Assembly: GCA_945897435.1 (NCBI GenBank)
Contig: CAMDFJ010000004.1
Span: 10,316-74,315, forward strand
Origin: Candidatus Kuenenia stuttgartensis
Lineage (GTDB): Bacteria; Planctomycetota; Planctomycetia; Pirellulales; UBA1268
Direction of reading: 5' to 3'
DNA: 64,000 bases
In this document: one piece after another, positions 24,030 through 40,970 of the stretch
Numbering within the stretch: position 1 is the first letter of the stretch
Layout of the letters: each line of letters begins with the position of its first letter
Notes under the pieces: generated by a model
What the model was told of the DNA's origin: nothing
The model's database searches: none
Seen by the model: only the letters and a program-made list of their open reading frames with translations
Translations under genes and position numbers: made by a program

Positions 24030-27350
<3,321 letters not shown>

Positions 27351-27718
27351 GGATGGCGACGCGGTGTGGCTGGCGGCTTGGACTGGCCGCAGGGCGGGTG
27401 GGCCGACGGCGGTGAGCCGGTCGGCCCGCGAAAAAGCGGATCAACACTCGATTCTCACGCGAAAGCCGGGCAGGGGTCAAGGCGAACGGCCGCGGTGGTT
27501 TGGGCGGCTGGGCTTTCGCCACGGTCCGCGACGCCGTGCCCGGCCTCGGCCTGCCTGTTTGGCGATTGTCATTCGTCCGTTGATTGTGGAGGCTGGGACG
27601 GTCAATGGCAGGTGGTGCCCCTTCCATTCGGCTCATCTACAGTTCCGAGCAACGCGACCGGCTTGGCCGGGCAACTCCGCCTGAGATTCCTCTGGCCTCG
27701 TTGAAAGAAAACCGATCG

Positions 27719-28690
27719 ATGCAGACTTTCCGCTCGGGCCGGCCAAGCCGGCGTGAGGTCATCCGTCTGGCCACGCTGGCGGCGATCGGAGGAGCGTCTG
27801 CGAACGCCCTCGAGCCCATCGGGCGGACGGGAGGCCCTTCGTTCGCCCCCGGACTCAACGCCTACTCGTTCCTCGAACAGCTGAACGCGAACCAGAAGGA
27901 CGCGACCGAGGGCATCGACCTGTTCGGCGTCGTGGATTTTTGCGCGCTGCACGACATCCCGGCCGTGGACCTGACCGGATATTTCTTTCCCGGCTATCCG
28001 GAGCCGCCGGCGGACGGCTACGTCAGCCGCATGAAGCGTTACGTTCACGATCGCGGGATCGTGATCAGCGGGACGGGAGTGAAGAACGATTTCGCGACGG
28101 CCGACGGGGCCGTTCGCGCATCCGGCGTGCAGCTCACGAAGACCTGGATCGATGTCGCCGCGCGGCTCGGAGCCCCGGTTGTCCGCGTCTTCGCAGGCCC
28201 TCACGCTCCCAACAAGGACTGGCGGTCGGTCGTAGGCAACGCACCGCGCGAGGAGGTCGAAGCATGGATGGCCGATGCGCTGCGCGAATGCGCGACGTAT
28301 GGCGAGACACTCGGCGTGCTCGTCGCCGTGCAGAATCACGGCGACTTCATCAGCACCGGACCGGAGCACCTCAGCCTTCTCCGCCGGGTCGATCACCCGT
28401 GGTGCGGCGCCCTCGTGGATACGGGGAAATACCTCACCGCCGATCCATATGCAGACATCGCCATGATGGTGCCGTATGCGGTCAACTGGCAGATCAAGGA
28501 AACGCTCGGCAGTTCGCTCAAGAGCCCGCGCAGCGATTTCGGCAGGCTCGTGAGGATCATTCACGACGGCGGCTACCGCGGCTTCGTGCCGATCGAGACT
28601 CTGTCGATGGGCCGCGAGCACTACGACCCCTCGGTCGAGGTCGTGGGCGTCCTCGAAGCGCTGCGGCAGGCGATCACGGCGGTGTCCTGA
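27719..28690 (+). CDS. Exported xylose-isomerase-like TIM-barrel protein (sugar phosphate isomerase/epimerase family), TAT leader
   Basis: Twin-arginine leader 'RPSRREVIRLATLAAIGGASANA'. Body resembles the AP-endonuclease-2/xylose-isomerase-like TIM family ('VVRVFAG', 'LVAVQNHGDF'). Confidence 0.85.
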   Translation: MQTFRSGRPSRREVIRLATLAAIGGASANALEPIGRTGGPSFAPGLNAYSFLEQLNANQKDATEGIDLFGVVDFCALHDIPAVDLTGYFFPGYPEPPADGYVSRMKRYVHDRGIVISGTGVKNDFATADGAVRASGVQLTKTWIDVAARLGAPVVRVFAGPHAPNKDWRSVVGNAPREEVEAWMADALRECATYGETLGVLVAVQNHGDFISTGPEHLSLLRRVDHPWCGALVDTGKYLTADPYADIAMMVPYAVNWQIKETLGSSLKSPRSDFGRLVRIIHDGGYRGFVPIETLSMGREHYDPSVEVVGVLEALRQAITAVS

Positions 28691-28809
28691 CCGCGAAGCG
28701 ACGTCGGGTGAGGGTTTGCCGGCGCAGGGCTGCAAAATCAGAGATGCCCGGGCCAGAGTTGCCCGAGCGCTTGTTCCGAGAGATATTCAGTTCCAAAGGG
28801 AACACAGTC

Positions 28810-30150
28810 ATGAAAAAGATGCTCACCGATAGACAGCCGTCCTCGCCGTCTCGACGGACTTTTCTGGGCCAGTCGCTCGCCCTCGGGGCCGCGGCCCTGC
28901 CGACGATCGTTTCTGCACGGGCACTCGGGCTCGAGGCGGGCACGGCCGCAGCCAGCGAACGGATCACGCTCGGCGTCATCGGCATCGGGAACCGCTGCCG
29001 CTATGTGCTCGGCTCGATGCTGACCCTGCCCGACGTGCAGTGCGTCGCCATCGCCGACGTCCAGGCCTCCCGCCGCGATGCCGGCAAGAAGATGGTGGAC
29101 GAGACGTATGGCACCACCGACTGCAGGCTCTATCGAGACTTCCGCGAGTTGCTCGCCCGTGACGACATCGATGCCGTCCTCATCGCCACCGGCGACCGTT
29201 GGCACGCCCCGGCGTCGATGATGGCGGCGGAGGCGGGCAAGGACGTCTACAGCGAAAAGCCCTGCGGACTCACGATCGACGTCTGCCAGCGGCTCGCCGA
29301 GACGATCCGCAAGACAGGCCGGATCTTTCAGGCCGGCACCCAGCGGCGGAGCGTGCCAAACTTCGCGGCCGCGGCGGCGCTCGCCCGCTCCGGAAAACTC
29401 GGCACCCTCGAGCGACTCAACGCCTCGGTCTACCGGCCGACCCTCGGCAACGACTGGCTGCAGGCAGAGCCGACGCCGGCGCGGGAGGACTGCGACTGGA
29501 ACCTCTGGCTCGGGCCCGCCCCGTGGCGGCCCTACAACGAAAAATACGTGAGTGGCGGCTGGCGGGGCATCTACGACTTCGACTCGGGCTGCAGGCTGCT
29601 CGATTGGGGAGCCCACACCGCAGACCTCTGCCAGTGGGCCAACGGAGCCGATGACACTGCGCCAATCTCCTACGAGCCGACCGACGTGGGAATCGAGTGC
29701 CGCTATGCCAACGGCGTCGTCCTGTTTCTCGACTTCCTCGAAACCCCGTTCGGCGACCGCGGCCCGAACTGGAACACGAAGCTCGGCACCTGTCCGGTGA
29801 AGTTCATCGGCACGACAGGCTGGATCGAGACGGGTGACTCGGGCGACATTGACCTCTCGGACGAGGCCCTGCGGACCGGCCTGCCTCGGCCGGAGAAGGT
29901 CGCGAAGGGCACCGATGCGGCCCTCCACGCCCGGAACTTTTTCGACAGCGTGAAGTCGCGGCAGCCGACGATCTGCAATGCCGACGTGATGCGGAAGAGT
30001 CACGTCGCCTGCCACGCCGCGGCGATCGCCTGGATGCTCGGCCGCAAACTCAGCTTCGACCCGGCCCGGGAGGTCTTCACGACTCCAGACGGACTCGACG
30101 CCGAGGCCAATCGCCTCAGCAGCCGGCCCGAACGTGACTGCTGGGCCTGA
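28810..30150 (+). CDS. Exported Gfo/Idh/MocA family NAD(P)-oxidoreductase, TAT leader
   Basis: 'PSRRTFLGQSLALGAAALP' twin-arginine leader. 'LGVIGIGNRCRY', 'DAVLIATGDRWHA', 'GKDVYSEKP' are Gfo/Idh/MocA Rossmann motifs. AAAGGGA lies upstream of ATG 28810. Confidence 0.88.
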   Translation: MKKMLTDRQPSSPSRRTFLGQSLALGAAALPTIVSARALGLEAGTAAASERITLGVIGIGNRCRYVLGSMLTLPDVQCVAIADVQASRRDAGKKMVDETYGTTDCRLYRDFRELLARDDIDAVLIATGDRWHAPASMMAAEAGKDVYSEKPCGLTIDVCQRLAETIRKTGRIFQAGTQRRSVPNFAAAAALARSGKLGTLERLNASVYRPTLGNDWLQAEPTPAREDCDWNLWLGPAPWRPYNEKYVSGGWRGIYDFDSGCRLLDWGAHTADLCQWANGADDTAPISYEPTDVGIECRYANGVVLFLDFLETPFGDRGPNWNTKLGTCPVKFIGTTGWIETGDSGDIDLSDEALRTGLPRPEKVAKGTDAALHARNFFDSVKSRQPTICNADVMRKSHVACHAAAIAWMLGRKLSFDPAREVFTTPDGLDAEANRLSSRPERDCWA

Positions 30151-30307
30151 GCTCGCAACATCCCCCGCCAATCGTGGTGTCAGGCTCAGTCCGCCGCCGG
30201 CGGTCTCGTCCGCCGGTGCTGGTGCAGCCCGCCGAGACTGGGATACAACGTCAGGATCCATCGGCCCGCCACTGCCGTCTGCGTCCGAGTCAACGGGAGA
30301 CCTTTCC

Positions 30308-32776
30308 ATGCCCCTGGGCGACCAACCCCGCCGAAGATGGATCTGCGGCTGCGGCAGACTGGCCGCCGCCTGTCTGGTGTTGGCGGCTGTCGCGGTCGAG
30401 GCCGTCGGTCAGACGGCGTTCCAGAAGGACATCGAGGCGGGAATGTCCTCGGCCGGACCGCTCGTGATCAGCGGCATCTATCCCCACCTCGCTGCATTCA
30501 ACGGCACGGGTGCGTTCGCCAGCAACGGCGAGTGTGGAATCGGCGCCGTCGTGCCCTGGGCGGGCAGGCTCTGGTTTCTCACCTATCCGCCGCACTCCAC
30601 CAAGGGCAGCAGCGACAAGCTCTATGCCGTCGGCCCGGACATGAGCCTCGAGGTGCGGCCGGAGAGCGTCGGCGGCACGCATGCCAATCGGATGATCCAC
30701 GCGGAGTCGCAGCAGCTCATCATCGGTCCCTACTTCATCGACACGAAGGGCAACGTCCGGGCCTGTGACGTCAAGAACCAGCTCGTGGGCCGGATGACGG
30801 CCGTGATGCGGCACCTGAAAGACCCGGCCAATCTCGTCTATTTCTACGACATGGAGGGGGCGATCTACGAGGTCGATGTCCACTCGCTCGCCGTACAAAA
30901 ACTTTTCACCAAGCCGGTGCCCGGCTGGCACGGCAAGGGAGGCTACACGGCTCAGGGCCGCGTGGTGATCAGCAACAACGGCGAGGCGGCCGTGGGCAAG
31001 GACGTGCCACGAGAGTATCTCGCCGCGCTGCCGCCAGAAAAGCCGGAGGACGCCGGCGTGCTCGCCGAGTGGGATGGGAGCGAGTGGCGGATCATCGAGC
31101 GGCACCAGTTCACCGACGTGACCGGCCCCGGCGGTATCCGCGGCGCCCCCGACGACGCCGCACCGCTCTGGGCCGTCGGCTGGGACAGGCGGAGCGTCAT
31201 CCTGAAGCTGCTCGATGGCGGTACCTGGTCCACGTTCCGGCTGCCGAAGGGGAGCTATTCGTTCGACCCGCGGCATGGTTGGTTCACGGAATGGCCGCGA
31301 ATTCGCGAGCTGGGCGACGGCAGGTTTCTGATGGTGATGCACGGCCAGATGTTCGACTTTCCGCGCAGCTTCTCGCGGGCCGACACCGCGGGCATCCGGC
31401 CGATCTGCACCCACCTCCGCTACGTGCCCGACTTCTGCGACTGGAACGGCAGGCTCGTGATCGCCGCCGACGACACCAGCGTGATGGGCAACCCGCTCGC
31501 CGGACAGTCGCAGTCGAACCTCTGGTTCGGAGACTTTGCCGAGCTGAAAACCTGGGGTCCGACGGCCGCCTGGGGCGGTGTCTGGATGGGTGACGCCGTC
31601 GTGAAGGACGAGCCGAGCGATCCCTTTCTCGTCGCAGGCTACGCGACCCTCGCCCTGCACCTCTCGCACAGGGCGGACACCCCGGTGACATTCACCCTCG
31701 AGGCCGACCTGCAGGGGAATGGCCAGTGGCAGCCACTCGAGACGATCACCGTACCTGCAGAGGGCTACCGCCATCATGTATTCGACGCCGGGGTGAAGGC
31801 GGAGTGGGTGCGGCTCAGGGCCGACAAGACCTGCGAGGCGACCGGTTATTTCCACTGTGGCGGCGACGATCTGCCGCCGCGGGCTGCTGCCGCTGACACT
31901 GCCGGCGGAGCCGCGACGCCCGCGCTCGTCCGTCCGGCGAAGGGCAACCGAAACCTGCAGGTCGTCCTCGGTGACGGCTACTACGAGGTCGATGAGCGAC
32001 TCAGCTTCACGGCCCTGCCCGAGCCGAAAGAGGTCGGCGACATCCGCCCCACGCTGGAGTTGCAGTCGGAGTTCAGCCTGGATCCCGCTTCGGTCATCAT
32101 CACCGATGGAAACGGTGACCGTTGGCGGCTGCCCCGGACCGACGCCATGTTCGACAGGCCCTTCGCGAGCGGCTGGCCGCGTGGCGTGCGGGAGGTGGCG
32201 AGCGAGCGAAACCTGGCCAATTTCCACGGCATCTTCTACGAGATTCCGCGATCGAGCGAATCGAAGTCCGGTGAACATCGAAAGATCGACTGTCGAAGGA
32301 TGAAGCCGGTCGCGGCCCATCGGATGCCGATCAGCGACTTCTGCACCTGGCGCGGGCTGATGGTGATGTCTGGTGAGTTTGCCCAGCCAAAGGTCGGTCG
32401 TCTGTTTCGCTCCGCCGACGGCAGGGCCGCCCTCTGGTTCGGCAAGACGGACGACCTCTGGCAGTTCGGCAAACCGACCGGGCATGGCGGCCCATGGAAC
32501 AAGACGGCTGTCAAAGCCGGGCTGGCGAGCGATCCTTTCCTGATGACCAACTTCGACCGCAAGTCGCTGTCACTGTCGCACGACGCGTCCCAGCCGGTGA
32601 CGTTTACGGTCGAGGTCGATTTCCTGGCCACCGGCGACTGGAGCGAGTATGGCCGGTTCACGGTCGAGCCGGGTGCAACCGCTCTCCATCAGTTTCCCGC
32701 CGGCTATGCCGCCCACTGGGTCCGTCTCCGCGCCGACCGAGACTGCGGAGCCACCGCGGAATTCACCTACGAGTAA
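30308..32776 (+). CDS. Large exported hypothetical protein (822 aa) with an internal C-terminal module duplication
   Basis: Signal-like 'RLAAACLVLAAVAVEAVGQ' and GGGAGA upstream of the ATG. Residues encoded by 31394-31861 and 32300-32773 are clearly homologous (see findings). No family recognised. Confidence 0.75.
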   Translation: MPLGDQPRRRWICGCGRLAAACLVLAAVAVEAVGQTAFQKDIEAGMSSAGPLVISGIYPHLAAFNGTGAFASNGECGIGAVVPWAGRLWFLTYPPHSTKGSSDKLYAVGPDMSLEVRPESVGGTHANRMIHAESQQLIIGPYFIDTKGNVRACDVKNQLVGRMTAVMRHLKDPANLVYFYDMEGAIYEVDVHSLAVQKLFTKPVPGWHGKGGYTAQGRVVISNNGEAAVGKDVPREYLAALPPEKPEDAGVLAEWDGSEWRIIERHQFTDVTGPGGIRGAPDDAAPLWAVGWDRRSVILKLLDGGTWSTFRLPKGSYSFDPRHGWFTEWPRIRELGDGRFLMVMHGQMFDFPRSFSRADTAGIRPICTHLRYVPDFCDWNGRLVIAADDTSVMGNPLAGQSQSNLWFGDFAELKTWGPTAAWGGVWMGDAVVKDEPSDPFLVAGYATLALHLSHRADTPVTFTLEADLQGNGQWQPLETITVPAEGYRHHVFDAGVKAEWVRLRADKTCEATGYFHCGGDDLPPRAAAADTAGGAATPALVRPAKGNRNLQVVLGDGYYEVDERLSFTALPEPKEVGDIRPTLELQSEFSLDPASVIITDGNGDRWRLPRTDAMFDRPFASGWPRGVREVASERNLANFHGIFYEIPRSSESKSGEHRKIDCRRMKPVAAHRMPISDFCTWRGLMVMSGEFAQPKVGRLFRSADGRAALWFGKTDDLWQFGKPTGHGGPWNKTAVKAGLASDPFLMTNFDRKSLSLSHDASQPVTFTVEVDFLATGDWSEYGRFTVEPGATALHQFPAGYAAHWVRLRADRDCGATAEFTYE

Positions 32777-32798
32777 ACACGACGGGCTGCGGCACCGT

Positions 32799-33692
32799 TC
32801 AATCCTTCAACGACTGAAGGTAGGCGATCGACCGCGGCACCTGCTCGGCAAAGAGCGGGCTCTCGTCCTCGATGTAGGCATGCGCGACACCCGCCTTGCG
32901 GGCCGCCCTGAGAACGGCCGGGATGTCGATCTGGCCGCTGCCGAGCGACACGTCGTTCTCGGGCGGAGTCCGCCCCGACAGGTCCCCCTGAACGCCACGT
33001 CGGAGATCTTTCAGGTGCAGGAGTTTGACCCGATTTCCATACCGCTCGATGATCGCAGCCGGATCGGCGCCGCCGAAATGGGCCCAGAGGATATCGAGTT
33101 CGAAGGCGACGTCTGCGGGATCTGTCTCGGCCGCGATCAGGTCGAAGAGTGTGCCATCTCCGTGCGTCGCAAACTCGTAGCCGTGGTTGTGGTAGCAGAA
33201 TGTAAGGCCATGCTGCTCCCGGAGCAGCCGGCCGACGCGATTGAAGTCTGCGGCCGCCATCCGGGCATGGTCGGCCGTGAACGGGCCCTTGTGTGGAATC
33301 CAGGCCACCCGCACGAACCTCGCCCCGAGGGTTTTGGCATCGGCTGCCACCGTGGCGGTCGCCTTGATGAGATCTTCGTAGCCGACGCCATATGACGAGC
33401 ATGTCATGCCCCGTTCGTCGAGCAGCCTGCGGATCACGGCGGCGGTCGCGCCGAAGAGGTTCGAGAACTCGATATCGCGAATCCCGAGCCCGCGGATGGC
33501 GTCGAGGGTGCCCGGGATGTCGGTTTTGAACGGCTCGCGGTAGGTGTATGAAACCATGCCGGGCGGTTTGGACAGCAGCGGCTCTGCGGTCGCCACGGAG
33601 ACGAGCCCCGTGGCGAAGGCGATCAGACAGGCGATCAGGCCGCGAGCGTCGTACGGCCTGTATCCGGCATGGTCATCCAGCCTGCGTATCAT
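32799..33692 (-). CDS. Exported xylose-isomerase-like TIM-barrel protein (sugar phosphate isomerase/epimerase family)
   Basis: Start at ATG 33692 with GGGAGG 6 nt upstream. Hydrophobic leader 'LIACLIAFATGLVSVATA'. 'FVRVAWIPH', 'FCYHNHGYEF', 'VKLLHLKD' are TIM-barrel family motifs. Confidence 0.82.
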   Translation of the reverse strand: MIRRLDDHAGYRPYDARGLIACLIAFATGLVSVATAEPLLSKPPGMVSYTYREPFKTDIPGTLDAIRGLGIRDIEFSNLFGATAAVIRRLLDERGMTCSSYGVGYEDLIKATATVAADAKTLGARFVRVAWIPHKGPFTADHARMAAADFNRVGRLLREQHGLTFCYHNHGYEFATHGDGTLFDLIAAETDPADVAFELDILWAHFGGADPAAIIERYGNRVKLLHLKDLRRGVQGDLSGRTPPENDVSLGSGQIDIPAVLRAARKAGVAHAYIEDESPLFAEQVPRSIAYLQSLKD

Positions 33693-33822
33693 GGAAGCCT
33701 CCCGACGGTCTACAGTGCGGACGACCCACGTCGAATGAACCCGCTTCAAATGATAGTCCAGAGTCCGTCCGATCGCCTGACGCTCTCTCCAGTTTCGAAA
33801 TCCCGTCCCGGAGGCCGGTCGA

Positions 33823-34431
33823 ATGTTCGGATGCATCCTGCTCGCCCTCGTCTACCTGGCGTTTTTGATCTGGCATGAGCCCTGGTTTTCCAGGCGGCTC
33901 GAACCGGGAGAGGCGATCGCGGCCATCGGCGGCGACTATGCGGAGAGTGATCCCGAGGAGCGGCGGGCATTTGAGGCATTCATGGACGGCGATGATGGCC
34001 GGCCCTTCTACATGCTGAACCTGATGCGGTATCGCGGGCAGGCCGAGTATCGGGACGGAAAACTTCCCGATGGCGGTGTCGCCGCCGGACTGACTGGCAG
34101 GGAGGCGGGGCGACTGTACGAGCGGATGGTCGTGCCCGAGTTGCTCAAGCGAGGATGCTATCCGGTGTTCGTGTCGCGGAAGATCGGAAACCTGCTCTCC
34201 GCAGGCAGCGGCAGCGACTTTTTCGAGGAGATTGCCGTCGTCCGCTACCGCAGCCGGCGGGATATGCTGTCGATGGTCGCGAGCAGGCCGTTCATCGAGG
34301 GCATTCCACACAAGTGGGCCTCGCTTGAGAAGACGGTCGCCGTGCCGACCCGGTTGATGCTGTTGGTCGATCTGCGGACGCTCGTGCCGCTCACGCTGTT
34401 CGCCGCGTACGCGATCGCAGGCTGGTTCTGA
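33823..34431 (+). CDS. Hypothetical membrane-anchored protein (possibly DUF1330-like alpha/beta barrel core)
   Basis: N- and C-terminal hydrophobic segments. The central 'PFYMLNLMRYR...EEIAVVRYRSRRDMLSMV' is reminiscent of DUF1330. This is a weak call. Confidence 0.55.
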   Translation: MFGCILLALVYLAFLIWHEPWFSRRLEPGEAIAAIGGDYAESDPEERRAFEAFMDGDDGRPFYMLNLMRYRGQAEYRDGKLPDGGVAAGLTGREAGRLYERMVVPELLKRGCYPVFVSRKIGNLLSAGSGSDFFEEIAVVRYRSRRDMLSMVASRPFIEGIPHKWASLEKTVAVPTRLMLLVDLRTLVPLTLFAAYAIAGWF

Positions 34432-34454
34432 CCGGATTCCCCTGGAGCCCAGCA

Positions 34455-36131
34455 ATGATCGACAATAGAACGAGGAACAGACTGACGACGGTGGGGCTGG
34501 CCTGCCTGTTGCTGGCGGCGGTCGCCGTGGCGGGCTTCGCACTGATCGGCGGTCGGCAGGGAGTGCTGCTGCTCATCGCCAGGATGCGGCGGGTCGAGCC
34601 GGCGGCAAACCACCCGGTCGTCTGGGAGCAGGGACCACCGGCTGAACCGGCCGGCGACCGCAGGCCGAACATCATCGTCATCCTCGCGGATGACATGGGC
34701 TTCAACGACATCACTTTCAACGGCGGCGGAGTCGCCGACGGCGCAGTGCCGACTCCGCAGATCGACTCGATCGGCCGCGATGGCGTCAACTTCCCGCTGG
34801 CCTATGCCGGAAATGCCACCTGCTCGCCTTCGCGGGCGGCCCTGATGACGGGTCGATACCCGACCCGGTTTGGCTTCGAGTTCACAAGCGCTCCGGTCAA
34901 CTTCGCCCGGGTCGTGGCCATGAGCCTGGGCAATCCGTTCCACGAGGCGATCTACCACAAGGAACGGGAGCAGGACGTGCCGCCCTTGGCGACGCAGGGA
35001 CTGCCCACCTCCGAGGTCACGATCGCGGAACTGCTCTCGAAAGCGGGCTACCGGACGCTGCATCTGGGGAAGTGGCACCTGGGCGAGACCGAGGAGTTCC
35101 AGCCCGAGCGGCGCGGGTTTCATGAGAGCCTCGGGTTTCTGGCGGGGGGCTCGATGTACGAAGACCCCGACAGCCCGGAGATCGTCAACGCGAAGCAATC
35201 CTTCGATCCGGTCGACAGTTTTCTCTGGGCGGCACAGCCCAGCGGCGTGCGGTTCAACGGCGGCCCGGTGTTCAAGACCGACGGCTACATGACCGACTAC
35301 CTCACCGATCAGGCGATCGCGGCCATGGCTGCCAACCGCCACCGTCCGTTCTTCATGTACCTCGCCTACAACGCACCACACTCGCCGCTGCAGGCCACGA
35401 AGGCGGATTACGACGCCCTGCCGCAGATCGGCAGCCATCCGCTCCGGGTCTACGCGGCGATGATCCGCAATCTCGACCGCAATGTCGGCAGGGTGCTCGA
35501 TGCGATTCGGGAGCAGGGAATCGAGAAAGAAACGCTCGTGATCTTCACCAGCGACAATGGTGGAGCCAACTATCTCGGGTTCGACGCCCTCAACAAGCCG
35601 TACCGTGGCTGGAAGGCCACCTTCTTCGAGGGCGGGCTGCGGGTTCCGTTCTTCATGCGCTGGCCGGGGCGGTTGCCGAAGGGGGTGAGCGTGCCCGATC
35701 CCGTGACCCACTTCGACGTCTTCGCCACCGCGGCGGCCGTGGCCGGGGCGGAACTGCCGACCGATCGAGCGATCGACGGCACGAACCTGATTCCATTCAT
35801 CGAACCGAAGGCCCCGGGTCGGCCGCACGACGCGCTCTTCTGGAGAAGCGGAAACTACCGAACGGTTCGGCTGGCCGATTGGAAACTCCAGGTCGACGGC
35901 ACCCGCGGGAAACAGTGGCTCTACAATCTGGCCGTCGACCCGACCGAGCAGCGGGATCTTGCCGAGTCGAGCCCGGAGAAGGTCGCCGAACTGGCTGCGG
36001 TGCTCGCCCGCATCGATGCCGAGCAGGCCAAGCCGCTCTGGCCGGCGCTGATCGAGGCGCCGGTGCTGATCGACAAGCCTCTGGGGCGACCGATGACCGC
36101 GGCTGACGAATTCATCTATTGGTCGAACTGA
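34455..36131 (+). CDS. Arylsulfatase-type sulfatase (formylglycine-dependent)
   Basis: 'NIIVILADDMGFNDI' and the FGly signature 'CSPSRAALMTGRYP'; 'LGKWHLG'; 'SDNGG'. N-terminal anchor/signal present. Confidence 0.9.
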   Translation: MIDNRTRNRLTTVGLACLLLAAVAVAGFALIGGRQGVLLLIARMRRVEPAANHPVVWEQGPPAEPAGDRRPNIIVILADDMGFNDITFNGGGVADGAVPTPQIDSIGRDGVNFPLAYAGNATCSPSRAALMTGRYPTRFGFEFTSAPVNFARVVAMSLGNPFHEAIYHKEREQDVPPLATQGLPTSEVTIAELLSKAGYRTLHLGKWHLGETEEFQPERRGFHESLGFLAGGSMYEDPDSPEIVNAKQSFDPVDSFLWAAQPSGVRFNGGPVFKTDGYMTDYLTDQAIAAMAANRHRPFFMYLAYNAPHSPLQATKADYDALPQIGSHPLRVYAAMIRNLDRNVGRVLDAIREQGIEKETLVIFTSDNGGANYLGFDALNKPYRGWKATFFEGGLRVPFFMRWPGRLPKGVSVPDPVTHFDVFATAAAVAGAELPTDRAIDGTNLIPFIEPKAPGRPHDALFWRSGNYRTVRLADWKLQVDGTRGKQWLYNLAVDPTEQRDLAESSPEKVAELAAVLARIDAEQAKPLWPALIEAPVLIDKPLGRPMTAADEFIYWSN

Positions 36132-36132
36132 A

Positions 36133-36150
36133 CCCCGCTCGAGCGCGGGG
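36133..36150. terminator. GC-rich hairpin between convergent sulfatase and condensation-domain genes
   Basis: CCCCGC-TCGAGC-GCGGGG (6-bp stem) located 2 nt after the sulfatase stop. No U-tract. Confidence 0.3.
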
Positions 36151-36165
36151 CGGACCACCGCGACA

Positions 36166-37590
36166 TCAACTGGCCGCAATCACCGGATCGCGGAGCTGCT
36201 CGCTTCGTGCCGAGGCCAACAGCTCCCGCCACTGGGTCAGGTAGCAGTTCATGATTGCATCGGCCGCCGCGGGCGTGATCGCGGTGGCGTCGTAGCGGAA
36301 GGAGATCGTCATCCTCCCTGCATACTCGAAGATACCGAAGCCCCAGCGGGTGCCCGGACGCAGGGGCGGCGTGCGGATTTCGATGTCGAGGCACCGGGCC
36401 TTGTCGAGCCACATCAGCCCCTCCTCGTCGACCGGCAGCCGCTTTCGCAGCCGCCACGAGGGATCGCTGAGGTTCGTCAGCACGGCCGTCGAGAAACAGT
36501 TGTGGCGGCGCAGGAACCATTGCATCACGCGTCGGTAGCGGACGGCGACCCCCAGGCCGTCGAGGAATTCCGCACCCCTGCCTGCCTGGCGCCGTTCCTG
36601 GAGGTCCCGCTGCAGGCCGGGCAGCAGCGATTGCCAGTCGCCGCATTCCGAGACCCGTCGATCGAGAAAGACGTAGGTGTAGCGGTTCGCCGCCGGCATT
36701 CGCTCGTCTGCTCGGGACCGAATGTCGGTGGGGACCGCGACCCGCAGGCGGGCCCGCGGCGAGACGCGGCAACCGCGCTGCCATTCGCCGAGCACGGCAA
36801 AGAGCATTGCCACCGCGATGTCGTTGCGGGTCGCGCTGAACCGCTGTTGGATGGCGTCCATCACGGCGATCTCGTTTGCGGAAAAGGTGTGCGTGCGGTG
36901 TCCGAGGGCCGTGTCCGGCCGCTCGCGGGACAGTCTCGATGCCGCCGCAGAAACGTCGCTCGCCGCCGGCGTCGCCCGGAGCACGGTGAACCGCAGGAAG
37001 CGTTTCAGTCTCTGCCAGAGGGAGACTCCTGCAGCCGAGGGGTAGCTCCCGCGGTCGTCGAGCAGGGCCGCGTCGGAACGGAAAAATGGATCCTCGTCGC
37101 TGGATGCTCCGCTGAGCACGATGTAGGCGAGTGCCAGATCCTGGAGAAACATCCGGGCACCGTGACCATCGCAGCAGGCGTGATGGAAGAGAAGTTCGAG
37201 ATCGGAGCCCTCGGCCGTCTCGCGCAGGGAGCCGCGAAGCCCCGGTTCCCGTTCCAGATCGATGCCGCGCAGCTCCGTCCCGCCGGTGCCTCTCTCCGCA
37301 GCGACGACGATTTCCGGCCAGCCGGTCGCCGGCGCGTACCAGAAAAGTCGATTCGCCTCGCTGCGGATGGTGGCTCGGAGGAGCGGGTGGCGGGCGATCG
37401 CGAATCGCCAGGCGTCGGCCATGGTGGCGGGGTCGATCGGCCCGGCAAACCGCAGCACGACCAGAAAGACGAGCGGATAGTCTGGCCGGTCGTCGAGCCA
37501 CATGAACTGCTCGAGCGGGGTCAGCCGCCAACAGCGGTCGCCTTCGGCCCAGGGGGCATGGCGGGCGAGCAGGTCTTCGACTCGTACCAT
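36166..37590 (-). CDS. Stand-alone condensation-domain protein (NRPS C-domain / PapA-like acyltransferase)
   Basis: Active-site motif 'HHACCDGHG' (HHxxxDG). N-terminal 'LTPLEQFMW' is typical of C domains. About 474 aa. Start at ATG 37590. Confidence 0.75.
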   Translation of the reverse strand: MVRVEDLLARHAPWAEGDRCWRLTPLEQFMWLDDRPDYPLVFLVVLRFAGPIDPATMADAWRFAIARHPLLRATIRSEANRLFWYAPATGWPEIVVAAERGTGGTELRGIDLEREPGLRGSLRETAEGSDLELLFHHACCDGHGARMFLQDLALAYIVLSGASSDEDPFFRSDAALLDDRGSYPSAAGVSLWQRLKRFLRFTVLRATPAASDVSAAASRLSRERPDTALGHRTHTFSANEIAVMDAIQQRFSATRNDIAVAMLFAVLGEWQRGCRVSPRARLRVAVPTDIRSRADERMPAANRYTYVFLDRRVSECGDWQSLLPGLQRDLQERRQAGRGAEFLDGLGVAVRYRRVMQWFLRRHNCFSTAVLTNLSDPSWRLRKRLPVDEEGLMWLDKARCLDIEIRTPPLRPGTRWGFGIFEYAGRMTISFRYDATAITPAAADAIMNCYLTQWRELLASARSEQLRDPVIAAS

Positions 37591-37876
37591 CCGCGATCTT
37601 CCGTGAGCGGGCCGAAGCGAAGCTTCCGCAGGCCCGCAGCATAGTCGATTCGCGGAGAGGGTCGCATGGGGCATGCGGTTTTGGGCCGCTTGAGTGGGGC
37701 GAGAAGGATGTCGTATGACCCGACGATGCTTTCGACCGCCCTTCTGGAGACGTCAGACACGAGGATCTCGGATGCGATACCATACGAGTCTCGGTGATGA
37801 ATCTCGAGGATGAATTCTGACGGCATCGCGCCGCCCCCGGTGGCAGGCCCGGTGCCCTCGGGCCGGGGCCAAAGGG

Positions 37877-38746
37877 ATGCCAGACTCAGACAACCGTATC
37901 AAGCCAGCCGGCCTGCCAGCGGGCAGCCTCGTCTTCCTCGGAACCGGGACCAGTGTCGGAGTGCCCGTCGTCGGCTGTGTCTGCGGCACCTGCACGAGTG
38001 CTGATCCGCGAAACCAGCGGTCGCGGACGAGCGTGGCAATCGGGCTCCCGGGCGGCACACTGCTCGTCGACACCACGCCCGATCTCCGCAGCCAACTGCT
38101 GCGACAGCGGATCGGCCAGGTCGATGCCATTCTCTACACGCACGACCACGTCGATCACGTCTACGGCCTCGACGACATCCGGCCGCTCTGCTTCGCCGCC
38201 GGGCGTCCGATTCCCGTGCTCTGCGAGGAGCGGGTCGAGCGGCGAATCTGCCGGGCCTTCGATTACGCCTTCGAGACCGTTCCCGTGCCTGGTGGCGGCG
38301 TGCCGAAGATCACCTTCGAACGGATCGGCACAAGCCCGTTCGAGGTCCTCGGCAGCCGGATCACCCCGCTGCGGCTGCAGCATGGCACCTTCGACGTGCT
38401 TGGGTTCCGATTCGGCGATCTCGCCTATTGCACCGATACCAACTGCATCCCCGACGAGACATGGCCGCTTCTCGAGGGTCTCGACACGCTGATCCTCGAC
38501 TGCCTCCGGCCGTCGCGGCATCCGACCCACTTCTCGCTCGACGAGGCGATCGCGGTCGCCCGGCGGGTCGGCGCCCGGCGGACGCTTTTCGTGCACATGT
38601 CCCACGAGATCGAGCATGGGACGGTCTCGGCCATGCTTCCGCCGGGCATCGAACTGGCCTACGACGGTCTGGTCGTCCCGATGATCCTTCCGCCGACGGC
38701 TAGCGTCGCAGCCGCAGCGAGTTGGCGATCACCGACAACGAACTGA
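37877..38746 (+). CDS. MBL-fold metallo-hydrolase (PhnP / GPP-like)
   Basis: '[11 protein letters not shown]', 'CTCxxCTS'-like Cys cluster 'GCVCGTCTS', and '[16 protein letters not shown]' (HxHxDH). Confidence 0.82.
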
Positions 38747-40970
38747 TGCTCATCGCCGCGGCGGCGAGCATCGGGCTCGTGACATGGCCGACGAGCGGAT
38801 AGAGCAGGCCGGCAGCCAGCGGAATCGCGAGCAGGTTGTAGGCGAAGGCCAGCACCAGATTCTGGCGAACGTTCCGCATCGTGGCCCGGGCCAGGTCGAT
38901 GGCGCGGGGCAGGCCGGCCAGCCCGCCGGAGAGCAGCGTGACATCGGCCGTTTCGAGGGCCACGTCGGAGCCGGAGCCCATCGCGATACCGACGTCGGCC
39001 GCGGCCAGTGCGGGGGCGTCGTTGACGCCATCCCCCACGAAGACCACGGCTGCCCCTGACCGGGCCGCCTGCCGCAGTGCGGCGACGCGGTGCGATTTCT
39101 GTTCGGGCGAGAGCCCACCGCTGGCCCGGTCGATCCCGACGCCGGCGGCGATTCTCCCTGCGGCCGCCTGGGTATCGCCCGAGAGCATCTCGACTGCGAT
39201 CCCGCGGCGGCCGAGTTCCGCGATCACCGCCGCTGCCTCCGGCCGCGGCGGGTCGGCGATCGCGAAGCAGCCGGCATAGCGGCCGTCGACGGCGACGAGG
39301 ATCAGCGTCGCCGTATCGGCAGAGCGGATGCCCGCCGCGGGGTCTGAGGGTGTGGTGATGCCCCTCGATTCAAGCAGCGGTCGACTGCCGATGAGCACCT
39401 GCCTCTCCAGCACCCGACCCTCGATGCCCCGGCCGACGATCGCCTGGACCAGTTCCGCCCGGGCGGGCTCGATACCCGCCTGTTCGACGGCGGCGGTAAA
39501 AGCCTTGGCCAGTGGATGCTCGCTTGCGGCCTCGAGGCTCGCCGCATGAAAGAGCAGCGACCGAAGTGGCTCGGCTGCCAGCCTTTCCGAGCCTGCGGCC
39601 AGATCCTCGTCCGTCCAGCTTCCCGCCTCGGGGCCGGCCGTCACCGCAGCCACGATTCTCGGCCGTCCCTGTGTGATCGTGCCGGTCTTGTCAACGACGA
39701 CCGTCGCCGCCGTCGCCAGTTTTTCCATGGCTTCGGCCGAGCGGACAAGAATCCCCTCCCGCGCTCCACGGCCGATCGCAACCGTCATTGCCAGAGGCGT
39801 CGCCAGTCCGAGCGCGCAGGGACAGGCGATCACAAGCACGCTCACGGCCGAGAGCAGCCCGAGTGCCATCCGCGGCTGCGGCCCGATCATCGACCAGACG
39901 AGGAATGTGAGCAGTGCGACAACCAGCACCGCCGGCACGAAGAAGGCGGAGATCCGGTCGGCGAGCTGCTCGATCGGGGCCCGCTTTTCCTGGGCCTCGC
40001 TGACAAGTCTGGCGATCCGGGCGACGAGCGAGTCGTGGGCGACGGCGGTCGCTTCGATGACGATCGCCCCGGAGCCGTTGATGGCACCGCCGAGCACGCG
40101 GTCGCCGACGCCGCGTTCGACCGGCATCGGCTCGCCAGTGAGCAGCGACTCGTCGCAGCTCGTCGTTCCCTCGCGGATGACGCCGTCGGTCGGGATTCGG
40201 CCGCCGGGCCGGACGCGGAGCAGATCTCCCCTGAGCACGGTCGCCAGCGGCACGACTTCGCCCGACGGCTCCCGTTCGGCCGTCGGCGGCGAGAGGTCCA
40301 TGAGGGCGCGGATGGCGACCGTCGTGCCGCGGCGGGCCCGGGTTTCGAGCAGCTGTCCGATCAGCACCAGCACGACGATCATTCCGGCCGACTCGAAGAA
40401 GGTTTCCAGGCTGCCGTCGGGGCGGCGAAACGCATCCGGAAAGATGCCGGGCGCAATGGTCGCGACCGTGCTCGCGGACCAGGCCACGAGCACTCCCAAC
40501 GCGATCAGGGAAAACATCGTCGGTCGCAGGGCCCGCAGGCCGGCGAGCCCGGCGTTGAGGATCTGCCAGCCTCCCCAGAAGACGATCGGGGTGGCGAGGA
40601 CGAACTGCAGCCAGTTGCCAGCCTGACCGCCGAGCCAGCCGAGCGTGCCATGCCCTCCCGTCGGCGCTTCCATCTGCATGCCGGCGTGGCCGAACATTCC
40701 CAGCATCGCCACCACCATCAGGATTGCCGCCAGCGCCGAACAGACGACGAGCCGCAGCCGTTCTCCCCGCTGCCCTTCATGCGCCGCGGCAGGCGCGATG
40801 CCGATCGGCTCCAGTGGCATGCCGCAGATCGGGCAGGCGCCAGGCGAGCCGCTTGTAACCTGCGGATGCATCGGGCAGCGATAGCCCAACTCGCCTGCCC
40901 CGGCTTTTGCGCAGCAGGGTTTTGGCGGTCCTGCGGCAGGCGTCGGCTGGATGACGTCGAGCGGCAACAT
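38700..40970 (-). CDS. copA: Heavy-metal P1B-type ATPase, Cu(I)/Ag(I) signature
   Basis: '[10 protein letters not shown]', 'DKTGTIT', '[10 protein letters not shown]', plus TM7 'YNLLAIP' (YNx4P) and TM8 'MSISS' (MxxSS), which are typical of P1B-1. The N-terminus carries 'CPMHPQV...[10 protein letters not shown]' instead of a classical MxCxxC HMA domain. Confidence 0.9.

Follow-up and report, generated by a model that had tools for sequence, protein, structure and literature searches.

A probable accessory block of periplasmic glycan-catabolism genes in a planctomycete-type genome, and the large unnamed protein family that it contains

Gene content of the locus

Four genes for exported proteins lie side by side in the stretch of DNA analysed here (64,000 nucleotides, referred to as the window), and the question that they raise is whether they encode one dedicated pathway or are neighbors for other reasons. 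A preliminary description had placed such a cluster at 27719-33692, and all four genes are found there, with the assignments of the TIM barrels to PF01261 and of the oxidoreductase to PF01408 confirmed. It had also put a sulfatase 0.7 kb beyond the cluster; the sulfatase gene exists on the plus strand, but the interval before it is not empty and contains a probable gene for a 202-aa protein. The genes of the region and the two anchors that border it are:

24030..27350, minus strand: secA, left anchor of a variable site (1106 aa; Pfam SecA_DEAD, 416 bits, and further SecA domains)
27351..37876, no strand: lineage-specific insert of 10.5 kb between secA and the MBL-fold gene
27719-28690, plus strand: TIM1, Tat-exported xylose-isomerase-like TIM barrel (323 aa; PF01261, 86.6 bits)
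28810-30150, plus strand: Gfo, Tat-exported Gfo/Idh/MocA oxidoreductase (446 aa; PF01408, 59.8 bits; PF19051, 76.9 bits; SRRTFLG leader)
30308-32776, plus strand: U822, Sec-exported candidate enzyme of glycan cleavage, member of a large unnamed family (822 aa)
33692-32799, minus strand: TIM2, Sec-exported xylose-isomerase-like TIM barrel (297 aa; PF01261, 51.6 bits), convergent with U822
33823-34431, plus strand: orf202, probable small membrane-anchored protein (202 aa), with 23 nt between its end and the sulfatase start
34455-36131, plus strand: S1 formylglycine sulfatase, S1_19-like (558 aa; PF00884, 191.7 bits; CSPSR motif in the translation)
36166..37674, minus strand: stand-alone condensation/WS-DGAT-like acyltransferase-domain protein, last gene of the insert (PF00668, 27 bits, below cut-off)
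37877..38746, plus strand: MBL-fold hydrolase, right anchor (PF12706, 128.9 bits)

TIM1, Gfo, U822, TIM2, and the sulfatase show coding-type GC3 values of 0.80-0.86. For orf202, GC1/2/3 of 0.64/0.46/0.81 is a coding signature, whereas the antisense ORF that overlaps it has 0.75/0.53/0.61, and searches of Pfam and NCBIfam with its product give no match. The condensation-domain protein also remains below cut-off against the NCBIfam WS/DGAT subfamily (32 bits).

A lineage-specific insert

Within the genus, secA orthologues are 86-92% identical, and orthologues of the MBL-fold gene (78-82% identity) directly adjoin secA in G011, G009, and G002, where the distance from the secA start to the MBL gene is about 180 bp. 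Since secA abuts the MBL gene in these three genomes, the region between 27351 and 37876 is a lineage-specific insert of 10.5 kb, and its cargo consists of seven genes (TIM1, Gfo, U822, TIM2, orf202, sulfatase, and condensation-domain protein). In four other congeners (G014, G004, G005, and G012) the same site is occupied by other, unrelated inserts, the cargo of which includes ABC ATPases, a PIN toxin, and a 2,539-aa protein. Neither direct repeats nor a tRNA or integrase gene were found in the flanks of the insert.

The proposal that the four genes form a conserved module is not sustained, as neither 40 relatives nor about 12 metagenomic contexts show any pair of them in synteny; missing synteny in relatives, which the preliminary description had named as counting against its proposal, is thus observed for every pair. 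At the 13 loci with Gfo orthologues (60-77% identity) the neighbors vary, and no TIM1, U822, or TIM2 lies within 1.5 kb. A single TIM1 orthologue occurs among the 40 relatives, on another contig, and at E ≤ 1e-40 these relatives yield no orthologue of TIM2. Metagenomic contexts of TIM1 and TIM2 orthologues are variable, and three TIM1 contexts contain no Gfo. Orthologues of U822 with 83-86% identity adjoin a P450/SDR/OYE gene set, which G000 retains on contig C40 without U822. Genomes of the PVC group are operon-poor, and missing synteny is therefore weak evidence against a functional link. Judged from gene order, the four exported genes are a recent, species-specific juxtaposition and not a conserved pathway. 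What we consider rather probable is an accessory block confined to this lineage, with genes for glycan catabolism in the periplasm and with U822 as a functionally separable member, instead of a conserved pathway of four proteins.

Export signals

Judged by the conservation of motifs and leaders across homologues, all four proteins seem to be exported, in agreement with the earlier proposal. The twin-arginine leaders that had been read on TIM1 and Gfo are well conserved, with an RR motif in 112 of 120 TIM1 homologues and S/T-R-R-x-F-L in 12 of 13 Gfo orthologues. Homologues of TIM2 possess Sec-type leaders with an AxA end, followed by a conserved (E/A)PLFP, and those of U822 possess Sec-type leaders immediately upstream of a conserved ISG(I/V)YPHLA block. 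Every protein encoded between 27719 and 36131 appears to be exported and is plausibly carbohydrate-acting.

Gfo and the TIM barrels

A described pathway for glycoside cleavage employs a Tat-exported, cofactor-loaded 3-dehydrogenase and, for the 3-keto-glycosides, a TIM-barrel lyase (bioRxiv 10.1101/2024.03.25.586180; PMC8121099). The Gfo/TIM pairing chemistry suggested earlier for this locus fits it. Among solved structures, Gfo and TIM2 are nearest to AL3 and AL1/BT1 of that pathway, and they largely conserve the catalytic and ligand residues. PDB entries were assigned to the AL/BT enzymes by comparing alignment positions with the residue numbers of the preprint, by depositors' names, and by adjacent accession series. 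The closest entries to Gfo are 8tdf and 8tdh (E 1e-16), and among NCBIfam models BT_2158_fam scores highest, its 116.8 bits falling far short of the equivalog cut-off of 750 bits. Gfo keeps EKP and the equivalents of Gln161, Arg192, Asp248, and His252, and the equivalent of Trp195, a substrate-contact residue, is Leu. By homology to AL3/BT2158, Gfo is a candidate glycoside or sugar 3-dehydrogenase that most likely would hold a tightly bound NAD(P) and oxidise the C3-OH of a glycoside. For TIM2, the closest entries are 8tct, 8tcs, and 8tcd (E 6e-16 to 6e-15), and the residues described as metal and substrate ligands in AL1/BT1 (bioRxiv 10.1101/2024.03.25.586180) have counterparts in its motifs YHNH, D-x-x-W, and H-x-K-D. 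This homology and these ligands make TIM2 an AL1/BT2156-like candidate 3-keto-glycoside 1,2-lyase, most likely metal-dependent. TIM1, which has homologues of 70-89% identity in Planctomycetota and Verrucomicrobiota, belongs by sequence to a distinct, highly conserved TIM-barrel subfamily, and only one clear relative is found in the PDB, the function-unassigned structure 4ovx (E 9e-14). It is presumably metal-loaded, and a role as lyase, hydratase, or keto-sugar isomerase may be envisaged, speculatively.

Among known systems, AL1-AL4 and BT2156-BT2160 of Alistipes and Bacteroides thetaiotaomicron (Nasseri et al., bioRxiv 10.1101/2024.03.25.586180; Liu et al. 2021, PMC8121099) resemble the locus in a Tat-exported Gfo with a PF19051 C-terminal domain, in the Gln, Arg, Asp, and His residues of its active site, in a TIM barrel with signal peptide and the same ligand motifs, and in the periplasmic location of all components, predicted here from leaders. 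In contrast, the block contains neither a DUF1080 lyase/hydratase nor the second, cytoplasmic Gfo reductase nor a regulator, its Gfo reaches 117 of the 750 bits required for the BT_2158 equivalog, and it adds a Tat-exported TIM barrel of another subfamily in genes that form no conserved operon. The P2B11 cluster, with two "sugar-phosphate isomerase" TIM barrels on the flanks of two oxidoreductases and no regulator or transporter, acts on glucuronides and 6-sulfo sugars in a Gram-positive host (bioRxiv 10.1101/2024.03.25.586180). In our block the oxidoreductase is likewise flanked by TIM barrels, transporter and regulator are missing, and the nearby sulfatase fits a charged or sulfated substrate. 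However, P2B11 is of Gram-positive origin with two oxidoreductases, its Oxido1 structure (8tdi) matches Gfo at E 1.7e-6, more weakly than AL3 does, and here Gfo and TIM2 are separated by the unrelated 822-aa gene. The inositol enzymes IolG and IolE belong to the same superfamilies, pairing a Gfo/Idh/MocA dehydrogenase with a TIM-barrel dehydratase that works beside a keto group, but the block proteins score far under the equivalog cut-offs (80 versus 355 bits for IolG, 54 versus 290 for IolE) and have conserved export signals, whereas IolG and IolE are cytoplasmic.

The genome (3.0 Mb) carries 20 Gfo, 27 TIM-barrel, and 13 DUF1080 genes, and such wealth of paralogues would favor a chance juxtaposition, i.e., unrelated members of paralogue-rich families gathered at a recombination hotspot with no common substrate. 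The unrelated cargo of the secA-MBL site in other congeners, the presence of an unrelated condensation-domain gene, and a phylogenetic distribution that differs gene by gene point in the same direction. Yet a TIM barrel lies within 2.5 kb of 4 of the 20 Gfo genes, where 0.8 are expected (P ~0.008, whole genome), Gfo and TIM barrel being neighbors again at C23, C77, and C148. Moreover, three of the seven genes of the block are Gfo/TIM genes, for which a rough calculation expects about 0.07 such blocks per genome, and the shared export and plausible carbohydrate activity of the proteins also speak against chance, which we regard as unlikely. In the accessory block that we favor, Gfo, TIM1, and TIM2 would be members of a modular, paralogue-rich "oxidise, then eliminate" toolkit for glycoside cleavage.

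This same density above chance, the co-directional order of TIM1, Gfo, and U822, separated by 119 and 157 nt in which no terminator is predicted, the homology to AL3 and AL1, and the P2B11-like layout would also suit one dedicated periplasmic pathway, in which Gfo makes the 3-keto-glycoside, the TIM barrels eliminate and hydrate, and U822 supplies or binds the substrate. Against it stand the lack of any conserved gene pair, the recent insertion of the block, the opposite strand of TIM2, and the absence of DUF1080 and second Gfo components, a fuller set of which is situated on contig C12. Together with the partners of U822 considered below, this renders a dedicated pathway even less probable than chance.

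The U822 family and its partners

It is the U822 family, very large and unstudied, that seems to us the most interesting part of the locus and to merit study, the cluster itself being ordinary. U822 has 532 matches in GTDB species genomes; 6461 homologous clusters from several phyla were scored, at 48% identity or more, and the family comprises 1976 representatives at 50% identity. No match was obtained in Pfam or NCBIfam at E ≤ 0.01 or among PDB sequences at E ≤ 1, and a profile search was likewise empty. The AF2 model (pLDDT 86.5, pTM 0.88) predicts a seven-bladed β-propeller and a β-sandwich followed by a duplicated three-blade/sandwich unit:

30470..31537, plus strand: predicted seven-bladed propeller, residues ~55-410 (AF2-model secondary structure)
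31085..31852, plus strand: repeat copy A, residues 260-515, last three blades and first β-sandwich
31982..32764, plus strand: repeat copy B, residues 559-819, three-blade-like unit and second β-sandwich

Copies A and B are 32% identical over 270 columns (BLASTP, E 7e-38). Sixteen residues are invariant, acidic and basic ones among them, and N224, D293, S296, E328-W-P-R331, and D375 are the invariant polar residues of the propeller (35 representatives, 36-56% identity). A weak match to PLipase_C_C, a β-sandwich, occurs in 18 of 41 homologues.

A co-occurrence of U822 with Gfo/TIM enzymes, for which the preliminary description had suggested a test, is not borne out by a neighborhood survey of 80 loci, where SusC/SusD, MFS, GH29, and sulfatase genes are its partners. 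One of these loci has a TIM barrel and nine have a Gfo within 10 kb; Gfo-like genes directly adjoin U822 homologues in three or four (L058, L087, and L092), the one point here in favor of a dedicated pathway. About 20 Bacteroidota loci show the order SusC-SusD-U822-(GH29)-MFS, and in the minimal SusC-SusD-X-MFS loci, often accompanied by a GH29 fucosidase, the U822 homologue is the only candidate degradative enzyme. These exported homologues, linked to S1 sulfatases, fill the enzyme slot of polysaccharide utilization loci under ECF-sigma/FecR or another regulator. The family itself lacks a match among CAZy-related Pfam models and solved structures, and in the planctomycete-type genome studied here, which is without SusCD, the gene lies amid Gfo/TIM genes. 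Context, conservation, and fusions suggest for U822 a probable role as a hydrolase or lyase that cleaves glycans or oligosaccharides in the periplasm, independently of Gfo/TIM.

Surface glycan-binding proteins typically occupy the slot right after SusD, propeller and β-sandwich are common binding folds, Foldseek with the U822 model retrieves generic propellers only, with no enzyme-specific match, and the only further matches are weak, CBM-like ones, so that one might think of a non-enzyme, i.e., an SGBP-like glycan-binding or scaffold protein or a periplasmic sensor. In contrast to fast-evolving SGBPs, however, the family maintains 48-56% identity across phyla and its 16 invariant residues, D293, E328, and D375 included. 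Among Bacteroidota members, 20 of 24 leaders are of the signal-peptidase-I and not the lipoprotein type, indicating a periplasmic rather than surface-anchored protein. A binding protein would leave minimal loci without an enzyme, and the family is common in phyla lacking SusCD. Furthermore, at least five cluster representatives (P0125, P0143, P0151, P0187, and P0159) are fusions with a catalytic sulfatase (Sulfatase+SGSH_C), and the family also bears appendages of its own, i.e., F5/8-C (CBM32-like), a T9SS tail, or a dockerin. A non-enzymatic role therefore seems improbable to us, and we retain that of a glycan-cleaving enzyme.

Recurrent fusion or adjacency to exo-type S1 sulfatases suggests that the glycan substrates of U822 may often be sulfated. 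The fused sulfatases are S1_11-like, nearest to GlcNAc-6-sulfatase structures, whereas the window sulfatase, separated from U822 by the convergent TIM2, is only about 25% identical to them, belongs to a different subfamily, and is closest to exo-4S-kappa- and iota-carrageenan S1_19 sulfatases (E 1e-78 to 1e-72). From co-location in this one genome we would guess that U822, the S1_19-like sulfatase, Gfo, and the two TIM barrels may act here on one sulfated glycan.

The GH150 λ-carrageenase CglA is likewise exported, large, and composed of several domains, with a β-propeller at the N-terminus and an association with sulfated-glycan genes, but its domain order differs, and PF25290-PF25292 match neither U822 at E ≤ 10 nor any of 41 family members; on present evidence U822 is no member of GH150.

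Gene content of the block and export of its products

Reading frames in the window, which has a G+C content of 64-70%, were picked by third-position G+C.

Genes of the block and its flanks (window positions, strand)
24030-27350, - strand: secA, 1106 aa, SecA domains
27719-28690, + strand: TIM1, 323 aa, xylose-isomerase-like TIM barrel (PF01261, 86.6 bits)
28810-30150, + strand: Gfo, 446 aa, Gfo/Idh/MocA oxidoreductase (PF01408 and PF19051)
30308-32776, + strand: U822, 822 aa, no family match
33692-32799, - strand: TIM2, 297 aa, xylose-isomerase-like TIM barrel (PF01261, 51.6 bits)
33823-34431, + strand: orf202, 202 aa, coding-type third-position G+C, no family
34455-36131, + strand: sulfatase, 558 aa (PF00884, 191.7 bits)
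36166-37674, - strand: condensation-domain gene, 502 aa (PF00668, 27 bits)
37877-38746, + strand: MBL-fold gene, 289 aa (PF12706)

All four genes for exported proteins that the preliminary description had placed at 27719-33692 were found, with PF01261 in both TIM barrels and PF01408 plus PF19051 in Gfo. To this layout two additions are made, namely that TIM2 is convergent and that the stretch separating TIM2 from the sulfatase, which had appeared as a gap, probably contains a gene, orf202. It has a coding-type codon-position G+C profile, its product is predicted to have hydrophobic helices at both ends and is without a match in Pfam or NCBIfam, and it ends 23 nt upstream of the sulfatase start. 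The gene at 36166-37674 encodes a stand-alone protein with a condensation or WS/DGAT-like acyltransferase domain, scoring below the cut-offs of PF00668 and of the WS/DGAT NCBIfam model. A promoter and terminator scan was uninformative; its consensus is ill-suited to the host phylum.

Export signals were judged by the conservation of leaders across homologues. At the N-terminus of Gfo (...SPSRRTFLGQSLALGAAALPTIVSARA), the Tat motif S/T-R-R-x-F-L stands at the same position in 12 of 13 orthologues from related genomes. TIM1 carries the motif SRREVIRL, and 112 of its 120 best homologues have an RR motif, in most cases in the canonical form (S/T)RR(D/N)FL. Homologues of TIM2 and U822 have Sec-type leaders, which end just upstream of a conserved (E/A)PLFP...PGM block and a conserved ISG(I/V)YPHLA block, respectively. 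Because these leaders and motifs are conserved in homologues, all four proteins are very probably exported, two of them via Tat, as had been read from the window alone.

The block fills a variable site between secA and the MBL-fold gene

In three genomes of the same genus (G011, G009, and G002; secA 87-89% identical), the orthologue of the MBL-fold gene lies about 180 bp from the secA start and is followed by trpD and then by the two genes that come next in the window, with the order unchanged. In four other congeners, secA and the MBL-fold gene are separated by unrelated, differing stretches from 5 kb to more than 15 kb long. From this comparison, window positions 27351-37876 are a 10.5-kb insert that is specific to the lineage and occupies a variable site. 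A mobile-element origin of this insert is unsupported, as no flanking direct repeats, tRNA or integrase were found. A gene for a P1B copper ATPase (38700-40970), located between the MBL-fold gene and trpD, is a second such insert and is absent from G011, G009, G002, and a further congener, G004.

The preliminary description had proposed a four-gene module and had named a lack of synteny in relatives, beforehand, as the finding that would speak against it. At least 13 of 40 related genomes encode Gfo orthologues (60-77% identity), the neighbours of which vary from genome to genome, and no TIM1-, U822- or TIM2-like gene occurs within 1.5 kb of any of them. Among the same 40 genomes there is a single orthologue of TIM1 (70%), located on a different contig than the Gfo orthologue of that genome, there is no orthologue of TIM2, and relatives of U822 are 45-56% identical only. 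Metagenomic orthologues of TIM1 (89, 77, and 72%) are found beside PFK, GH28 or sigma/FecR genes, and the three of TIM2 (84, 69, and 66%) each in a context of its own, with Gfo genes within 6 kb in one case only. Orthologues of U822 (83-86%, on six contigs) are in convergent orientation to a P450 gene, with genes for an SDR, an unknown protein, and an OYE next in line, and their upstream neighbours vary; in the genome of the window the P450/SDR/OYE set is situated on contig C40, without U822. As the block is an insert and no pair of its genes is conserved in relatives, the idea of a four-gene module is not supported. The neighbourhood tables are approximate because the simple GC3 gene caller missed some genes, including Gfo of the window itself; the key synteny statements are based on tblastn and BLASTP searches with the window proteins and on precomputed gene calls.

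The genome harboring the window (3.0 Mb in 205 contigs, 96% complete) contains 20 matches to PF01408, 27 to PF01261, and 13 to PF06439 (DUF1080). A TIM-barrel gene is encountered within 2.5 kb of four of the 20 Gfo genes, compared with 0.8 expected by random placement (P about 0.008), and of about 3 of 19 without the present cluster; because adjacency exceeds the random expectation, the genome shows a real tendency of Gfo and TIM genes to pair. Blocks with three Gfo/TIM genes among seven are expected about 0.07 times per genome, according to a rough binomial estimate. Operons are scarce in this bacterial group. Given this scarcity and the improbability of three Gfo/TIM genes in seven, a functional link within this organism may still exist. 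It would be speculative to propose that the proteins of the block share a substrate and act on it together; a sulfated galactan would be one example, in view of the S1_19-like sulfatase. The cluster is an ordinary, though instructive, accessory block.

Gfo and TIM2 resemble enzymes of the periplasmic 3-keto-glycoside pathway

In the periplasmic 3-keto-glycoside route of Alistipes (AL) and Bacteroides thetaiotaomicron (BT2156-2160), a Tat-exported Gfo enzyme with tightly bound NAD oxidises C3, elimination is carried out by a TIM barrel, which releases the aglycone of 3-keto-beta-glycosides, and for alpha-anomers by a DUF1080 protein, which also hydrates the glycal, and the product is reduced by a second Gfo (bioRxiv 10.1101/2024.03.25.586180; Liu et al. 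2021, PMC8121099). The top NCBIfam model for Gfo of the window is BT_2158_fam, 'glycoside 3-dehydrogenase', which scores 116.8 bits, where the cut-off is 750, and aligns over the N-terminal half only; an inositol dehydrogenase model comes second with 80 bits. Among solved structures, 8tdf and 8tdh match Gfo best (E 1e-16), and DgpA, inositol dehydrogenases, and glucose-fructose oxidoreductase rank lower; 8tct, 8tcs, and 8tcd are the best matches of TIM2 (E 6e-16 to 6e-15). We assigned these entries to the 3-dehydrogenase AL3 and the lyases AL1/BT1 (BT1 being BT2156) of Nasseri et al. (bioRxiv 10.1101/2024.03.25.586180), respectively, because of the names of the depositors, the adjacency of the accession series, and the residue numbering: Gln161, Arg192, Trp195, Asp248, and His252 of AL3 correspond to Q, R, W, D, and H in the 8tdf alignment, with the chain numbering shifted by 29, and 8tdi, from the same accession series, is named 'P2B11 Glucuronide-3-dehydrogenase'.

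Gfo keeps the equivalents of Q, R, D, and H of AL3 as well as an EKP motif, and Leu replaces the Trp equivalent. The TIM2 motifs CYHNHGYEF, ELDILWA, and LLHLKD align with YHNHAHEF, (E/Q)(L/M)DVYW, and (M/L)(F/L)HIKD, within which lie the metal ligands (His/Asp/His) and substrate contacts (His/Trp) of AL1/BT1 (bioRxiv 10.1101/2024.03.25.586180). At the sequence level, TIM2 combines the signal peptide, TIM barrel, and His/Asp/His metal site that characterize AL1/BT2156-type enzymes. TIM1 belongs to another subfamily with 4ovx, a structure without known function, as its sole clear PDB relative, and any reaction ascribed to it would be speculative.

Two other kinds of chemistry had been suggested for such a pair. 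For an inositol dehydrogenase and dehydratase, i.e., an IolG/IolE pair, both equivalog scores are far under the cut-offs (TIGR04380, 80.3 versus 355 bits; TIGR04379, 54.4 versus 290 bits), and export signals are conserved in the window proteins whereas IolG and IolE are cytoplasmic; this reading is rejected. C-glycoside deglycosidation would call for DgpA-like and DgpB/DgpC-like proteins. The DgpA structures 7xr9 and 9m3d do match Gfo (E 8e-12 and 7e-11), more weakly than the AL3-type 8tdf, and no Dgp chain is found among the PDB matches of TIM1 or TIM2. Judged by its likeness to AL3, Gfo would be a periplasmic NAD-bound glycoside 3-dehydrogenase, and TIM2, with the key residues of AL1/BT1, a putative 3-keto-glycoside lyase. 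Of the original proposal, the keto-glycoside chemistry is plausible for these two proteins.

In contrast to the AL/BT2156-2160 pathway, with its dedicated regulator and a cytoplasmic reductase as second Gfo, the block possesses one Gfo gene and, as had been stated from the outset, no regulator among its genes according to family searches. None of the 13 DUF1080 (PF06439) matches of the genome, i.e., candidates for the lyase/hydratase, is situated near the block on contig C4. Outside the window, a fuller BT2156-2160-like set is encoded on another contig of the same genome (C12:19003-29519), consisting of a Tat-Gfo, a cytoplasmic Gfo, a triple-DUF1080/PF06439 protein, an MFS-like transporter, and a TIM barrel, and further adjacent Gfo-TIM pairs exist on contigs C23, C77, and C148. 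The Gfo/TIM genes of the block might represent one more, loosely organised example of the recently recognised non-Koshland 'oxidise-eliminate-hydrate' cleavage of glycosides. In small planctomycete-type genomes the parts of this pathway are numerous (20, 27, and 13 paralogues here) and shuffled among sites rather than arranged in operons, so pathways should be read from adjacency only with caution in these phyla.

U822 represents a widespread family with a predicted all-beta fold

The 822-aa family is a more valuable lead than the Gfo/TIM genes. Among the candidates scored, U822 has 6461 homologous 90%-identity clusters, the family comprises 1976 representatives at 50% clustering, and 532 loci were confirmed in one-genome-per-species GTDB contigs. 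These thousands of members, for which neither a Pfam model nor a solved structure exists, belong to Planctomycetota, Verrucomicrobiota, Armatimonadota, Acidobacteriota, and many Bacteroidota (e.g., Chitinophaga, Larkinella, Niabella, and Siphonobacter), these five phyla being represented from soil, freshwater, and groundwater, and to Kiritimatiellae and Lentisphaerae, and identity across phyla is still 48-56% (GTDB loci). The closest GTDB relatives of U822 (L046, L047, and L057; 80-84% identity, 66-67% G+C) come from MAGs labelled 'Candidatus Kuenenia', a label that seems doubtful at such a high G+C and is possibly due to mis-binning or mislabelling. There is no case for horizontal transfer of U822, because its nucleotide identity to relatives (84-85%) falls inside the range of other shared genes (74-92%).

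No match to Pfam or NCBIfam models (E<=0.01) and no relative among PDB sequences was obtained for U822, the family profile found nothing among PDB sequences either, and by these searches U822 is not a member of a described GH or PL family. The GH150 lambda-carrageenases were considered in particular, and their models PF25290, PF25291, and PF25292 gave no match on the U822 gene (E<=10) or in 41 family members. An AlphaFold2 model built with 41 homologues is confident (pLDDT 86.5, pTM 0.88) and all-beta: residues ~55-410 form about seven blades of four strands each, residues 420-518 a beta-sandwich, residues 540-712 another blade-like region, and residues 725-821 a second sandwich. A Foldseek search of the PDB with this model retrieved nothing beyond generic double propellers of the WD40 type and GH43 matches with low TM scores, which gave no functional assignment. 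Residues 260-515 and 559-819 are internally duplicated (32% identity, E 7e-38). Across 35 representatives of 36-56% identity, 16 residues are invariant, including N224, D293, S296, E328-W-P-R331, and D375, and E75, R128, H208, K210, R311, R333, and an Arg/Glu/Asp set in the second lobe are near-invariant.

Genomic context, sulfatase fusions, and possible function of the U822 family

The surroundings of U822 homologues were surveyed at 80 loci with 10-kb flanks. Gfo-like genes are present at nine of the 80 loci, adjacent in three or four, and a TIM1- or TIM2-like barrel at one. Sulfatases are present at ten loci, adjacent in four. The sole strongly conserved arrangement, at about 20 Bacteroidota loci, consists of a regulator, SusC, SusD, the U822 homologue, often a GH29 alpha-L-fucosidase, and an MFS transporter, whose nearest NCBIfam families are aromatic-acid and sialate:H+ symporters. 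Leaders of 20 of 24 Bacteroidota members are of the non-lipoprotein type, which argues for a soluble periplasmic protein and not for a surface glycan-binding lipoprotein. The SusC/SusD position, the leader, and the links to glycan enzymes fit a PUL-encoded periplasmic CAZyme for the family, but not for the window gene in its own context.

Five of 23 unusually long family representatives (P0125, P0143, P0151, P0187, and P0159) consist of an N-terminal S1 sulfatase (PF00884 and SGSH_C) joined to a full U822 module; in others of this set a dockerin, an F5/8-type-C domain or a T9SS sorting tail is present. One subfamily comprises four of the fused sulfatases and a stand-alone sulfatase adjoining the U822 homologue of Agaribacillus (L119), and P0159 is a separate fusion. 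The sulfatase of P0143 is closest to the S1_11-type GlcNAc-6-sulfatase structures 7p24 and 5g2v (E 2e-56). The window sulfatase far exceeds the PF00884 cut-off (191.7 versus 25 bits), shows the formylglycine motif CSPSR in its translation, and is S1_19-like, closest to carrageenan Gal-4-sulfatases (E 1e-78). Because its identity to the sulfatases fused to U822 homologues is no more than about 25% and it is S1_19-like, not S1_11-like, it is not regarded as the specific, orthologous partner of U822.

From the leaders, neighbours, and fusions of its homologues, U822 appears to be a periplasmic glycan-cleaving enzyme acting on often-sulfated oligosaccharides. A more specific reading, which we put forward tentatively and with not quite even confidence, is that it represents a new, very widespread periplasmic glycan-cleaving family (a new GH or PL) in which a propeller is combined with duplicated sandwiches, D293, E328, and D375 being candidate catalytic residues. 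Its members would be the sole degradative enzyme in minimal SusC-SusD-X-MFS loci and would act jointly with exo-sulfatases on sulfated, possibly fucosylated oligosaccharides. With the enzyme slot that it holds in minimal PULs of Chitinophaga, Larkinella, and Niabella, all of them cultivable, and with its recurrent sulfatase fusions, the family is a worthwhile experimental target, and its substrate, once found, would give a function to a large set of 'hypothetical' glycan-degradation genes.

The regulator slot of the Bacteroidota loci is occupied either by an ECF sigma factor with FecR or by an unnamed protein of about 450 aa. At three loci of Larkinella/Cytophagales (L081, L086, and L101), SusC/SusD are followed by two tandem U822 paralogues (about 805 and 823 aa), with an ECF-sigma/FecR pair in the regulator slot. 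The ~450-aa protein is without a family match except for a sub-threshold one to PKD; it has one membrane helix, is conserved and encoded divergently from SusC at 13 Chitinophagaceae loci (position -3, L085-L125; e.g., L118:3565-4929, - strand), and may be a regulator of these minimal PULs.
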